Positions 13,167-52,169 of a stretch of 64,000 bases of DNA are shown piece by piece (position 1 is the stretch's first letter; every line of letters begins with the position of its first letter). The translations under genes and the position numbers were made by a program. The DNA is from Eledone cirrhosa (Eukaryota), in the NCBI GenBank assembly GCA_964016885.1, contig OZ024740.1, positions 289,602,001-289,666,000 on the forward strand, read 5' to 3'. The notes under the pieces are model-generated. The model saw only the letters and a program-made list of their open reading frames with translations. It was not told the DNA's origin and made no database searches.

Positions 13167-13215
13167 ATTGCTACGCCGGAGTTTCTCGTGCATGTTTACT
13201 GGGTCGTCAGGCAGT
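13167..13215 (-). ncRNA. Minimal type I hammerhead motif, degenerate
   Basis: ACTGC-CTGACGA-C..A-GAAA-CTCCGGCG-TA-GCAAT; stem II pairs weakly. Confidence 0.6.
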
Positions 13216-13633
13216 TTATATATCTACTAGCAGAATGGCGCGGCGTTGCTCGGGATTTGCTCTAGGGTTCTTATATATTTGATATATATTTATCGTTATC
13301 GTGCCTCGTTAAATAAATATGTTTGTTTATATTTTGTTATTGTGTATGCAAAAATATCTGTACACGAATATATAATTATATACATATATATATATATATA
13401 TATATATATATATATATATATATATATATATATATATATATATATATATATATATATATATATAAGGAATTTATATCTAGTAACATTTATATACACACAG
13501 ATGCATATCAATGCTAGCAAATATATAGGTTTTGTCTTAATAACAGTGTGGTTCAATGCATGGGGTTGCAGAACAATAATATGAGAGACGTAAAATAAGA
13601 AAATTATAAAATTAACTTACTTACTAAAAAATC

Positions 13634-13716
13634 ACTTCCAACTAATTAGTTTCTGGAATGGAGTAAATATATTTTCCGAAGAAATTTATAGAAAATCATT
13701 CCGTCATCAGGAAAGT
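13634..13716 (-). ncRNA. Type I hammerhead ribozyme
   Basis: Reverse complement of the motif at 14032-14114. Confidence 0.8.
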
Positions 13717-14031
13717 CTTTTTTCGTATAGGTCTCCAGGCATAGCGAGGACACTGGAAACTTATTAAAAAAATAATTCAGTGGAATGGAAATAGCGATGC
13801 GTGGACTGGATTCCAAGCCATTGAGAAAATCACTGCCTCTACGTCCGTAGCAAATTCAAAAAGAATCAATCACGTGACATCGAGGTCAATCAGTGGAAAG
13901 CGAGTGGTTATTAAGACAGCGGCCAGCTTACTACCATAGTAGCAGTCATGGCCAAATATTGCTCGACAAATGAATTGGAGATAATTATAAGGAATTTATA
14001 TCTAGTAACATGGAGACCTATACGGAAAAAG

Positions 14032-14114
14032 ACTTTCCTGATGACGGAATGATTTTCTATAAATTTCTTCGGAAAATATATTTACTCCATTCCAGAAACT
14101 AATTAGTTGGAAGT
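14032..14114 (+). ncRNA. Type I hammerhead ribozyme
   Basis: ACTTTC-CTGATGA-C-GGAATG...CATTCC-A-GAAA-CTAATTAG-TT-GGAAGT; predicted GUU cleavage after 14108. Confidence 0.82.
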
Positions 14115-14435
14115 GATTTTTTAGTAAGTAAGTTAATTTTATAATTTTCTTATTTTACGTCTCTCATATATATATATATATATATATATATATATATATA
14201 TATATATATATATATATATATATATATATATATATATATATATATATATATATATATATATATATATATATATAAAGAAAAAAAGATGAAATTGAAAATG
14301 CAACTGGAGTCTATATTTTTTTTAAAATAAGACTTCATCTTTTTTTCTTTATACTTTCACTCGTGTAGGACACCTCGGTTATTTTTCATTTTGAAAAAAA
14401 ACCTCACTTTCTAATGTATATATATATATATATAT

Positions 14436-14552
14436 ATAGGAAAAAGTATGACCCCGAGGGCAGAGTTCAAGCCGTTTCGACGGCTATTTCTGGACTGAGA
14501 AATAGCCGTCGAACGGCTTGAACTCTGCCGTCGGGGTCATACTTTTTCCTAT
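14436..14552. repeat. Near-perfect palindrome (about 55-bp arms, 6-nt loop)
   Basis: ataggaaaaagtatgacccc...ggctatttct-ggactg-agaaatagcc...ggggtcatactttttcctat. Confidence 0.92.
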
Positions 14553-14660
14553 TTCCCACTCTACTACCCTAAGTATTGAGTACTCTGGTGCGTTATGGTC
14601 CATCTGGTTCCTTACCACATTTCCTTTGTTATATATATATATATATATATATATATATAT

Positions 14661-15012
14661 ATGAATAAAGTTAGTCCTTCATCAGTGATCTTCCAACCAT
14701 CATTGGTATTTCATCGCTTTAAAGACCATATACCTCCGGTTGGTGCGAGCAACGGCTAAAAAAAGTCGTTGGGACACGTAAATAAAGGGGACACGAGAGT
14801 GTAAACGAACAAAAATGGTGAAGCAACGAAAAGTGAGGAAGAAGGAGTCAAGTCCCAAATTTCTATGAATTTAAATTCGGTGAAATCGTGAACGAGAGAG
14901 AATAAAGACCATCAAACCTGGTTGAAATGTGTGCAAGGAAGGAATTTCGCACAGGTCTAGCGGGAGGAAGAAGGGCTCAAGTCTGTGAATTCGGTAAACA
15001 TAAGTTCTGTGA
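14661..15012 (-). mobile_element. Fragment of the 625-bp family at 49068-49808
   Basis: Reverse complement aligns with 49420-49770; abuts (AT)n. Confidence 0.8.
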
Positions 15013-48828: not shown

Positions 48829-49067
48829 GTGTGTGTGTGTGTTGTATATATATATATTTATATATATATATATGTGTATATATATGTATATATCTGTATA
48901 TATATATATGTGTATGTATGTATGTATGTATGTATGTATGTATGTATGTATGTATGTATGTATGTATATGTGTGTATATATGTATGTACATGTGTATATA
49001 TGTATCTATGTATGAGTGTGTGTGTGTGTATATATATATATATGTGTATATATATATATATATATAC

Positions 49068-49808
49068 CTGAGGTATATGGTCTTTAATGAAATGCCTACG
49101 ACGGTTGGAAGACCACTGATGAAGGACAAACTTTTTCATATGTAACCCATTTGCAACGCCGCAGCTCCATTATTATCATATTTACACATATATTTTTTCC
49201 TCTGCTGCTACCCGTCTGTTTCGTTCTTTGTATCTTTACCCTTCTAGCAGTCTCTCTTTCTCTCTGTTAGCCTCTTCCTCACCTTTCACTCACTCATTCT
49301 CTGTCACTACCTCTCCTCCTCCCATTTCTTCCCGTTTGACCTGTCCGTAATCCTTTTCTCGCGCGTTCTTGGCCAAGCCGGTATGAATTTTTTTTGTCTC
49401 TCTCTCTCTCTCGTCTGCAACTTCACAGAACTTATGTTTACCGAATTCGCAGACCAGACCCCTTCTTCCCCCCGTTAGACCTGTGCGAAATTCCTTCCTT
49501 GCTCACATTTCAACCAGGTTTGATGGTCTTTATTCTCTCGTTCACGATTTCACCGAATTTATATTCATAGAAATCTGGGACTTGTTTCTTTCTTCATCAC
49601 TTTCTGTTGCTTAAACCATTTTATTTGTTTACCCTAGCGTCCCCTTTATTTACGTGTCCCAACGACTTTTTTTAGCCGTTGCTCGCACCAAGCTGAGGTA
49701 TATGGTCTTTAAAGCGATGAAATGCCTACGACGGTTGGAAGACCACTGATGAAGGACAAACTTTTCATATGTAACCCATTTGCAACGCCGCAGCTCCATT
49801 ATTATCAT
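49068..49808 (+). mobile_element. 625-bp monomer with about 113-bp terminal redundancy in (AT)n
   Basis: 49068-49180 repeated at 49693-49808; repeat contains CTGATGA. Confidence 0.75.
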
Positions 49809-50621
49809 ATATATATATACATATATATATATATATACATATATAAATGAAAGGTATAGAAAGGTATAGAAAACACTGCAGCGAAAAGCCACCAGCACTC
49901 CATAATATATATACATATATGTATGTCGATGTGTATATGTATATATGGGGTATAGATGTGTATGTGTGGATATAGATGTGTATGGATATGTATATATATG
50001 ATTATATGCATGCGTGTGGATGTATATTTTGGTTTGATATCAATATAACTGTACCTCTCTCTATATGTGGTGTGAATATATGCACTTTGTAGACTATGAA
50101 ATTTATGTGTTTTAACTATGCCAACATGTAGTTATCTGAGTTTGATTGTTTATGCATAAACATATTTAGTAATATTTTAGAGCGTATAATATGTTATATT
50201 ATACTGAGTGCAATTTACCACACCGTCCTATATTGTGTTGGTTAAGTTGTATATTATCGCATTACTATATCTCATTATCTTATTATAATTTTCATCTTTT
50301 AATATACTATCTTTCCTAGCCATAGATTTAATTTATATTCACCTTAAAACTCAATACAACACTAATCACCATTTATTTTGACATTCCTTTTAAATTCACT
50401 ATACAAGATACATTCAACTATCAGTTTGACAATCCTCTCCCTTCCTAATAGATTTTTATGCCATTTCTACTAACACCTCTCAACCATTTCTTTCAAAGGG
50501 TCATGACCTCAACTAAAGTATATTACTTTTCATCTTAACACCATATGAAAAAAACAATTTGATTCGTTAGTTCATCAACTACCTCCAAATATGGACATGA
50601 TACTAATTCTGAGTAAAATTA

Positions 50622-50732
50622 TTATTGCTTTTGAAAACAGCTGGTGATATGCATGTAAGTAAATATTCTCTCTATCTGATAGTTTGTAAACTTACATAGA
50701 TCAATAACTAGAAACCATCGTAAAGCAGTGAA
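50622..50732 (+). ncRNA. PLE B hammerhead variant (U3-A8), damaged copy
   Basis: TTGAAAA core; 30-nt deletion in the 3' arm of stem II; palindrome changed to CCATCG. Confidence 0.65.
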
Positions 50733-51082
50733 GTATATCTCTAATGACTTGATTTCTTATTTCATTGTTTTAACTTATATACATATATATTTATATATAT
50801 ATATATATATATATATATATATATATATATATATATATATATATATATATATATATATATATATATATATGTATATAAGTTAAAACAATGAAATAAAAAA
50901 TCAAGTCATTAGAGATATACTTCACTGCTTTACGATCGTTTCTAGTTATTGATCTATGTAAGTTTACAAACTATCAGATATATATTTATCCTTATCGAGC
51001 CCTCTTTGGATTTTAGTCTTCAAATTTATTATTATTACTATTTGGCTCCCTCGGTCGAGCACTCTATTGACTTATATTCTTC

Positions 51083-51440
51083 ATGCAGAAACAACATCTG
51101 AATATTTTTACAAAGAACTTACCCGTACCAAGCAGGAAAACATACCTAAAACTCCTGATACAGAAAACAGATGCGTTCATTAAAAAGTTGCGTTGGCGTG
51201 CCTTTTATTTCGATAATCAGAGAAAAGCAGACAACAAACAGGATAAATTTGGGTTTAAAACCTATAATAACCCTTAGAAAATGATGTCTTGGAACTCATA
51301 CGGAGTATCAAATTTCGGAATAGGAGCAATTATTTCCAGCAGAACCTGAAGAATAGAATCCGTTCTATTAAGGATTCTAATGCCGTGCACGTCCATTCCG
51401 ACAAAACTGGCAATCTATATCAAGTGGAGCGCAGTACTTA
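51083..51440 (+). pseudogene. PLE ORF N-terminal fragment (probably family B)
   Basis: TKNLPVPS..KKLRWRAFYF, then after a deletion ENDVLELIRSIKF..VHSDKTGNLY; flanked by 56-bp direct repeats. Confidence 0.85.
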
Positions 51441-51850
51441 TCCTTATCGAGCCCTCTTTGGATTTTAGTCTTCAAATTTATTATTATTACTATATATATA
51501 TATATATATATATATATATATATATATATATACACACATACATATATATATACACACATACATATATATATACACACACATACATACATACATACACACG
51601 CACACACATATATATATGAACTTGTTTTGCAAGGTTTTTTATATGAAATCGTGTGTTGAAACAAATATTGTTATATTTTGGAGGGTCATATTGTTATAAT
51701 AGTGCCAAAAATAATAATAAAGCAGACTCATTGTTTGGTTTGGATTGGTTTTCGCTTCTGTATCTTTTATATCTCCATAGTTAATTTACCTGGCAATCAA
51801 TGTTTCTCATTGATTGACGACCGGTTAAAAATACAGATATATATATATAT

Positions 51851-52169
51851 AGTATAAAAGAGAAAACACAGGTAAGCATTAAGAGAAGGATTTTATCCAG
51901 GTATTTACGACCGTTTCATTGGTAAGTGCAACCTTACATTGCTATACTGCAAATAGCAGCCACTCAATTATAATTGTTGTTCAGAATTATTAAGAATTAT
52001 TTCAAGAGTAACTCACTATTTTGAAAATTTGAACTGTGAACAACAATTATAATTGAGTGGCTGCTATTTGCAGTATAGCAATATAAGGTTGCACTTACCA
52101 ATGAAACGGTCGTAAATACCTGGATAAAATCCTTCTCTTAATGCTTACCTGTGTTTTCTCTTTTATACT
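51851..52169. repeat. 133-bp inverted repeat carrying the 3' half of a hammerhead
   Basis: Arms 51851-51983 and 52037-52169, one mismatch seen; GAAA-CGGTCG-TA at 52103-52114. Confidence 0.88.

Follow-up and report, generated by a model that had tools for sequence, protein, structure and literature searches.

Predicted hammerhead ribozymes of two block orders on Penelope-like elements and short (TA)n-inserted repeats of Eledone cirrhosa

We analysed a 64-kb stretch of the Eledone cirrhosa genome (hereafter the window; assembly GCA_964016885.1, contig OZ024740.1, C1:289602001-289666000 of 3.0 Gb; 35% GC and microsatellite-rich) and read it as a region in which ends of Penelope-like elements (PLEs) and short non-coding repeats, inserted in (TA)n, are nested; both carry hammerhead motifs of type I or type SGC, for which self-cleavage is predicted. 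The short repeats would probably be non-autonomous passengers that a PLE reverse transcriptase (RT)/GIY-YIG protein copies in trans, and to this reading as a whole we assign a probability of about 0.75. An insertion footprint carries this reading: among resolved inverted insertions, coding and non-coding, 48/49 use two fixed 3′ ends, one site per end. These ends are called E1 and E2 and are counted from the predicted cleavage site; families A–E are long elements and N1–N4 are short ones. The initial annotation of the window, which described a PLE/retrozyme system targeting (AT)n, captured mostly known biology at an unusual scale. Links between PLEs, hammerheads and (TA)n and between retrozymes and PLEs are already in print (PMC8557442, PMC4209133, PMC7229834, bioRxiv 10.64898/2026.07.22.740005), and hammerheads and (TA)n insertion are reported for the Hydra clade of PLEs, where Hydra-1_Obim is listed (PMC8557442).

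Type I motifs and coding Hydra-clade elements

A strict type I descriptor (CUGANGA or U3–A8 core, free 10.1–11.1 pair and palindromic stem III, in hammerhead position numbering) finds nine matches in the window, eight at a score of at least 14, and dinucleotide shuffles of the window (60 + 60) give means of 0.07 and 0.03 with a maximum of 1. All 14 positions listed in the initial annotation mark the lower coordinate of a type I motif within 2 nt. Eight of the motifs pass the strict scan as they stand (13634, 14032, 19517, 23488, 36143, 42641, 43455 and 45545). The other six are damaged in the window, yet each comes from a real family: 18970 and 44999 have a G5A change in the core, 44578 has a broken stem III, 50622 combines a stem II deletion with a broken stem III, and 13167 and 27379 belong to old, 72–87% identical families whose other copies keep the motif pattern. 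Roughly nine families had been proposed; nine are counted for the listed motifs, and a tenth, family E (52017–52118, +, U3–A8 core), is also real. The descriptors for hammerhead blocks were tuned on this window. Copies gathered by sequence alone pass the type I scan in 17/25 cases for N3, and sequence-gathered copies do so in 24/25 for N1, 20/25 for N2, 24/25 for C, 16/20 for D and 19/20 for B, giving 120/140 central copies over these families. An Rfam scan of the window contained no hammerhead among the best 150 of 167 matches, only microsatellite-driven microRNA matches.

Covariation points the same way. Among sequence-collected relatives, both sides of a pair have changed in 9/21 pairs of the D group, 5/15 of N2, 2/14 of N1 (where just three stem I pairs are counted, owing to a register shift) and 1/13 of N3, with 6/31, 3/16, 1/10 and 3/21 alignment rows left out as truncated or deleted. 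The paired fraction or covariation score of these alignments is reached in 0/500 shuffles, a control that ignores kinship. The comparison with shuffled sequence proposed in the initial annotation (8–9 matches in the window against about 0.05) and the one for covariation among genomic copies both came out on the side of the motifs, which are hammerhead-shaped, with core, stems I–III and covariation; self-cleavage is predicted from these features.

Type I motifs are abundant throughout the genome. Eighty 10-kb regions picked without regard to content (800 kb) contain 45 matches, or 56/Mb (bootstrap 35–80) and about 170,000 per genome by sampling, and five shuffles of the entire 800 kb give one match in total. 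Published hammerhead counts are 126,247 in axolotl and more than 6000 in coral (PMC7229834). The window holds eight matches in 64 kb against 3.6 expected from the sample; the motifs of the dense 39-kb cluster in the initial annotation are real, but at about twice the sampled mean we rejected the window as a special cluster. At least 25 motif clusters occur across the 1.35 Mb examined, a set biased to the searched families. Most sampled matches (32/45) lie no more than 250 nt upstream of an (AT)n of at least 16 nt, against 13–19% of random positions (null from the first 40 regions), consistent with the (AT)n targeting and enrichment that had been proposed.

Four families (A–D) are, judged from their frames and end repeats, ends of coding Hydra-clade PLEs. 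The initial annotation had counted two coding families and had taken the rest to be non-coding inserts bounded by (AT)n; this holds for N1–N3 and fails for C (43455) and D (23488), which flank Hydra open reading frames (ORFs) at loci L233 and L236 (C; units of 3514 and 4152 bp) and L239 (D; 4091 bp). Each of A–D has a type I hammerhead in its end repeat and (TA)n insertion, and the elements encode a single ORF with RT plus a GIY-YIG domain at the C terminus; the C and D frames are broken but collinear, and B is represented by its endonuclease end only. In alignment, family A shows all Hydra hallmarks (the RWK-type motif as RWR, DKT, a CxCx5C linker, no CCHH, and CxxC and CxH near E and N), and C, D and B show those in the parts covered by their frames. 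The Hydra ORFs went unrecognised in sequence searches of Pfam and PDB; their Atlas neighbours carry GIY-YIG and HTH_animal in 25–99% of members. At least 64 sequences match the family A frame at 39802–41880(−) at 99%, and in about 30 of them the 830-codon frame is unbroken; the full unit measures 6652 bp with an ORF of 813 aa from the first Met (L231). The initial annotation had named the RT encoded here as the mobiliser, but the window copy is 5′-truncated, lacks its first 138 codons and is not itself a source. Family B (45545, 50622) follows the endonuclease end at L256 and L138, which are one inverted insertion, and in 25 loci no B copy runs on into an ORF. Hydra ORF fragments occur in 9/40 sampled regions. 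The coding families B–D have 3′ ends at +50–54 or +139–192 and tails of 89–139 nt, and their inverted insertions are E1/E2 in 11/11 cases.

The two-end footprint of short non-coding families

Unit length in the short families is 525 bp for N1, about 478 bp for N2 and 428 bp for N3, and their longest ATG frames measure 53–64 aa. Compared with three full coding units (A, C and D), the B end and each other, they give short low-complexity matches only, and no same-family ORF lies next to them at 75 loci. Each family yields about 1900–2000 first-look candidates, a figure that is not a copy number. Their copies are 5′-truncated, occur as partial tandems (arrays of 1–3 units), and have an inverted 5′ arm and a tail on one end; across N1–N4, inserts of more than one unit are found at L109, L070, L032, L237, L287 and L307. 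The 3′ ends fall at +57/+175 in N1, +86/+193 in N2 and about +212/+272 in N3, giving tails of 118, 107 and 59 nt (about 50 nt in N4).

An inverted arm is present in 45/73 independent N1–N3 loci: 37 are E1/E2, one is E1/E1 and seven have one end not assigned, so that 37/38 resolved non-coding pairs are E1/E2 (p 1.4e-10). Three further E1/E1 calls for N3 came from a key-based end tally whose key sits in an internal TA-rich tract, and were superseded by segment mapping. Both end sites are followed in the unit by 3–9 nt matching (TA)n. The inverted arm is nearer to its own partner than to the family mean in 19/23 pairs with enough overlap, and no other copy is nearer in 11. The 5′ ends of the arms number 10 in the 21 nt at the cleavage site, and the stretches flanking it have 25 (60 nt) and 8 (30 nt). 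With no pile-up of ends at the site, run-off there was rejected, and this distribution argues for a template that is uncut or re-ligated. The near-strict pairing of E1 with E2 suggests coupled priming and gives a testable model for the formation of PLE inverted repeats.

The protein of a Poseidon PLE cuts both strands and extends them, starting at two internal RNA sites and making the tail, an activity described as unique to PLEs (PMC11167929); a tail on one inverted repeat of PLEs has also been described (PMC3846280, PMC8557442). Because a PLE protein makes the tail from two internal sites, finding the two-end tail footprint on short RNAs unrelated to the coding elements is good evidence that PLEs act on them in trans. 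In this respect the initial proposal of a PLE protein mobilising unrelated ribozyme-bearing RNAs gains support, as PLE-type insertion of short non-coding families that resemble none of the coding units compared. The footprint provides direct genomic evidence for the retrozyme–PLE partnership that PMC7229834 proposes and for which bioRxiv 10.64898/2026.07.22.740005 argues on the basis of co-occurrence and end homology; as far as the available text of these papers goes, their case rests on such evidence and not on an insertion footprint.

Several further observations concern these families. Relatives of N1, N2 and N4 at 70–85% identity are also short tandems (554, 467 and 527 bp). Some of the other type I families (L033, L200, L216, L031, L016, L224 and others) form short tandems of 310, 467, 469 and 554 bp and are likely to include more non-coding passengers. 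N1–N3 units have a GC-richer patch 130–260 nt upstream of the ribozyme, possibly an internal promoter, with words that we take to be an E-box (N1, N2) and an octamer (N3). In some of the N1 inserts L100, L101 and L102 the junction is palindromic, both arms beginning at one and the same position of the unit, and in L101 the inverted arm is the tail alone and the main arm one unit.

The (AT)n target can predate insertion. At one filled/empty site, four nested inserts, N1 and a type-SGC copy among them, interrupt a host repeat on the minus strand (13216–15136; halves 13216–13389 and 15012–15136) at its internal (AT)n, and paralogues (L156, L159, L162 and an unsplit copy at window 25402–25718) carry 13–66 nt of (AT)n at the insertion point. 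Among single-arm copies, 14/28 have (AT)n at the 5′ junction too. An automatic empty-site search over 36 insertions returned microsatellite noise only. The same repeat (also at 45760–45800) has a hairpin and CTAG at one end, which we assume to be Helitron-like, and its internal (AT)n gathers PLE-type inserts.

Within the window, N1 forms an insertion at 13465–14165, with a main arm (−) ending at E2, an inverted arm (+) ending at E1 and type I motifs at 13634–13716(−) and 14032–14114(+). N2 is present as one copy ending at E1 (19252–19676, +; motif 19517–19595), and N3 as a copy at 18720–19225(+), whose minimal motif at 18970–19012 has the G5A change, and a partial tandem at 44576–45250(+), with motifs at 44576–44618 (stem III broken) and 44999–45041 (G5A). 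The Hydra family A insertion spans 35015–42855(−): its inverted arm (41888–42855; motif 42641–42795, +) ends at E1, and beyond the 5′-truncated RT/GIY-YIG frame lie a microsatellite-rich long 3′ region, a motif at 36143–36297(−) and, to about 35064, an N-terminal ORF fragment. A non-coding portion of about 3.7 kb in the A unit abounds in TA, TG and TATG repeats (window 36300–39800, L232), and such elements would also spread new target-like microsatellite. The 3′ ends of coding families follow at 23447–23690(−) for D (motif 23488–23552), 42933–43558(+) for C (motif 43455–43509) and 45365–45737(−) for B, which ends at E2 (motif 45546–45685, U3–A8 core); a partial D motif at 17630–17683(−) has lost stem III and the 3′ strand of stem I. 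A second B copy (50586–50980) has stem II deleted (motif 50622–50731, +) and a partial inverted piece at 50878–50980. Next to it, at 50983–51493(+), an N-terminal ORF fragment of a further Hydra family lies between two copies of a common 59-bp end; its membership of family B is not shown. Family E occupies 51852–52301, with an inverted arm ending at E1 and a main arm ending at E2. Two decayed motifs remain, one at 13168–13214(−) with stem II unpaired (19 relatives at 72–90% over part of the query) and one at 27379–27421(−), from a U3–A8-core family, with a C3–A8 mismatch.

Other repeats share the window. (AT)n-bounded repeats at 14275–14416, 14439–14629 and 47238–48826 include one long hairpin and one duplicated 568-bp stretch; no hammerhead was found in them, and other ribozyme classes were not sought. 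A broken long interspersed nuclear element with RT and endonuclease lies at 31228–34237, another broken RT element, this one with zf-RVT, at 4566–9514 and a fragment of a DDE transposase at 26654–27073, and a common 180-bp repeat lies at 960–1149 and six other places.

Type-SGC motifs and the Naiad clade

Three motifs in the same span that were not in the initial list carry CUGANGA with no downstream GAAA, at 14685(−), 49116(+) and 49746(+). Their blocks run UH, GAAA, CUGANGA, the order of type SGC. A descriptor built on structure only, with no family sequence and requiring stems I and III, finds 60 matches in the first loci set examined; outside the query loci it finds 23, against 0–2 for six decoy cores. 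In the 800-kb sample it finds five (6/Mb, bootstrap 1–12, about 19,000 per genome) and in five shuffles one, and descriptors for the orders CSG and GCS find none in that sample.

We aligned 19 rows: 14/17 distinct descriptor matches, the window copy and four copies found by sequence, leaving out one truncated row and two window duplicates. The core columns (CUGANGA, GAAA and the A15.1–U16.1 pair) are invariant, and position 17 is not G in 18/19 rows. Both sides have changed in 23/30 pairs, including 14/19 in helices outside the descriptor requirements; the counts for stems I and III (5/6 and 4/5 pairs) are partly circular, 15/19 rows having already passed a descriptor that requires them. The 10.1–11.1 pair occurs as four pair types, is paired in 14/19 rows (74%) and covaries, and outside this pair the two strands each have their partner in sequence upstream of the cut site. 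We file the N4-superfamily motif as a putative variant of type SGC, with a stem II that is not in the published form.

The N4 unit measures 628 bp with a longest ATG frame of 61 codons, forms tandems of up to three units and is (TA)n-inserted; one relative has a 527-bp unit. Its ends lie at about +69 and +121–130, the motif sits 60–130 nt upstream of the two 3′ ends, and two inverted pairs are both E1/E2, from a query that selected E2 main arms. In the window, a motif at 14674–14735(−) has a predicted cut after 14729, in a copy ending at E1; a 5′-truncated end at 19740–19815(−) keeps block C only; and a partial tandem at 49068–49806(+) ends at E2 and has motifs at 49071–49127 (5-nt deletion before block G) and 49696–49757 (cut predicted after 49702; the full structure begins at about 49656). 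Elsewhere there are at least five more SGC families, all strongly diverged (L210:8395–8519, L218:1898–2022, L222:9156–9280, L223:7240–7362 and L286).

A second PLE clade, the Naiads, offers a possible partner. In PMC8557442 no canonical hammerhead is reported for Naiads, eight are marked HHR_half_core, and according to the supplement (TA)n is a preferred target of cephalopod Naiads too. Judged by eye, the 3′ ends of Naiad_Obim, Naiad_Ovul and Naiad_Esco in that supplement, three of the six published Naiad ends inspected, have the SGC order together with stems I and III and the extension of stem III, and two of these three are labelled HHR_half_core. The order was not seen by eye in Naiad_Omin and Naiad_Adux, both listed as incomplete, or in Naiad-1_Skow. 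A nematode entry placed before Naiad_Hpol shows, again by eye, the CSG order with all three stems.

We lean, if only slightly, towards the wider proposal that Naiad PLEs carry non-circularly permuted hammerheads missed by standard scans (SGC in cephalopods and, by eye, CSG in one nematode entry), and that some 19,000 active-type SGC motifs on short non-coding Naiad passengers exist beside the type I motifs that Hydra elements and their passengers bear, with every insertion primed once from each of two RNA start sites. Non-circularly permuted hammerheads were previously known only from environmental RNA. We found no literature report of them in animal genomes, in a search outside which most subscription papers lay. 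If true, the proposal would give these ribozymes their first genomic, animal home and would remove the main exception to the rule that PLEs carry hammerheads. Ribozyme censuses of animal genomes would then be missing a whole class, and SGC motifs by the thousands would form a natural series for studying the origin of RNA permutations.

Mechanism, rival explanations and known systems

In the mechanism we propose, a PLE protein, likely a dimer, would cut (TA)n and prime reverse transcription from both DNA ends, one priming occurring at E1 and the other at E2 of the same or a sister RNA, aided by the 3–9 nt of TA microhomology. The two cDNAs would stop at variable places and be joined head to head, a very short second arm giving the look of a simple insertion. 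Copying would pass through the ribozyme site, and the ribozyme may serve elsewhere in the cycle, releasing unit-length RNA from transcripts that are tandem or read-through. Hydra-clade proteins would carry the type I families, and the SGC family would depend on Naiad-clade proteins, whose published cephalopod 3′ ends appear to show the same motif.

The short families could instead be ordinary deletion derivatives of PLE ends with unsampled coding parents, their relation to the coding elements being hidden. This is quite possible, if at less than even odds: the comparison covered only three full coding units, although at least 25 motif clusters and many Hydra families occur in the 1.35 Mb; in Xenopus, 24/57 retrozyme families match ends of PLEs (bioRxiv 10.64898/2026.07.22.740005); and the end geometry of N1 (57/175) resembles that of Hydra B–D (50–54/139–192). 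Yet the short families have no similarity to the A, C and D units or the B end, no same-family ORF adjoins any of 75 N1–N3 loci, and the 70–85% relatives of N1, N2 and N4 are short tandems too, indicating that the short form is old. Were they classic retrozymes, monomers would be cut, circularised and copied by rolling-circle reverse transcription, an account we regard as less likely than not. It fits the more-than-unit inserts and circular units that fold below shuffles (z −3.8 to −9.6), circles too would give no stop at the cut site, and circles have been shown for coral, mussel and axolotl retrozymes (PMC7229834). Arrays here are short (1–3 units), however, an uncut template works in vitro (PMC11167929), and in one three-unit insert the units differ by 7–10 nt whereas the inverted arm differs from the last unit at 2/319, which fits a linear multi-unit template better, although as a single case this is weak. 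It is improbable that all short families, type I included, were moved by Naiads or another (TA)n-targeting clade and not by Hydra elements. The (TA)n preference of cephalopod Naiads (PMC8557442) and an N3 tail of 59 nt, near that of N4 and unlike those of Hydra B–D, would suit such a mover; against it stand Hydra ORF fragments in 9/40 sampled regions, abundant intact young Hydra copies, N1 and N2 tails that match Hydra, and the lack of a Naiad motif in the loci examined, the search not having been genome-wide.

The SGC motif might be a conserved non-catalytic structure, such as a protein-binding or start-site signal, or cut only in trans or with protein help. Its position 60–130 nt upstream of two 3′ ends, and a direct stem II of one pair that is unpaired in 5/19 rows, would suit this, but we consider it unlikely given core blocks that stay invariant across families sharing little else and a position 17 that is not G in 18/19 rows; the flanking helices could stack on the 10.1–11.1 pair in place of stem II. 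That the motifs are chance matches, or belong to satellite DNA that spread with no reverse transcription, is barely credible even in AT-rich repetitive sequence with descriptors tuned on this window: shuffles and decoy cores are near zero, both type I and SGC motifs covary, and dispersed 5′-truncated copies have fixed 3′ ends and inverted arms. Several points nonetheless weigh against passengers carrying self-cleaving ribozymes and moved in trans by PLE proteins. One N2 pair is E1/E1 and seven pairs have an end not assigned, and the similarity of arms to their partners is also explicable by gene conversion. SGC blocks C and G are joined directly by one pair only, unlike published type SGC; the Naiad match was made by eye in 3/6 ends; and no Naiad ORF motif occurs in the loci examined, although the genome as a whole was not searched for one. 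In vitro, eight of nine dimers of Xenopus retrozymes failed to cleave (bioRxiv 10.64898/2026.07.22.740005), PLE hammerheads are described as slow or protein-assisted (PMC4209133, PMC11167929), and here cleavage, expression and mobilisation by a given protein are predictions only.

Compared with Hydra-clade PLEs (PMC8557442), the coding elements share the C-terminal GIY-YIG, RWR for RWK, DKT, CxCx5C, CxxC and CxH, a type I hammerhead in the end repeat and the (TA)n target. They differ in size, a descriptive and not a defining trait (3.5–6.65 kb with microsatellite-rich long 3′ regions, against generally less than 3 kb), in tail length (89–139 nt against 30–40 nt) and in stem II loops of up to about 100 nt, unlike those published. 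Like minimal PLE hammerheads (PMC4209133), the motifs have the type I order, a palindromic stem III, a U3–A8 covariant core, many families per genome and mostly single truncated copies, but 10.1–11.1 is often mismatched, stem III has 2–4 pairs and the load reaches about 170,000 by sampling.

Published type-SGC hammerheads (Eckert et al. 2023, PMC10085705) share with the N4 motif the S-G-C order, the full core, covarying stems I and III and a short linker joining stem I with the strand that precedes GAAA. In the text available they come from metatranscriptomes, with none in genomes of known organisms, whereas the motifs here are genomic and in retroelements, and stem II here would be made up of a single pair and two helices formed with strands upstream. 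Naiad-clade PLEs (PMC8557442) resemble N4 in the (TA)n target, the short tail and, by eye, the SGC motif at three cephalopod 3′ ends, but N4 has no ORF. Metazoan non-LTR (long terminal repeat) retrozymes (PMC7229834; bioRxiv 10.64898/2026.07.22.740005) likewise combine a short, non-coding unit, a type I hammerhead, copies in tandem and a proposed mobilisation by PLEs; the units here are 428–628 bp (N1 and N2 slightly above the published 150–450 bp), mostly in 1–3 copies, and carry the full PLE footprint of two 3′ ends, inverted arms and (TA)n. The closest mechanistic parallel is Anolis Poseidon in vitro (Frangieh et al. 2024, PMC11167929), in which RT likewise starts at two internal sites, both DNA strands are cut and extended, and the hammerhead is not needed for insertion; the sites inferred here differ in lying 50–140 nt apart, with TA microhomology and one used per end.

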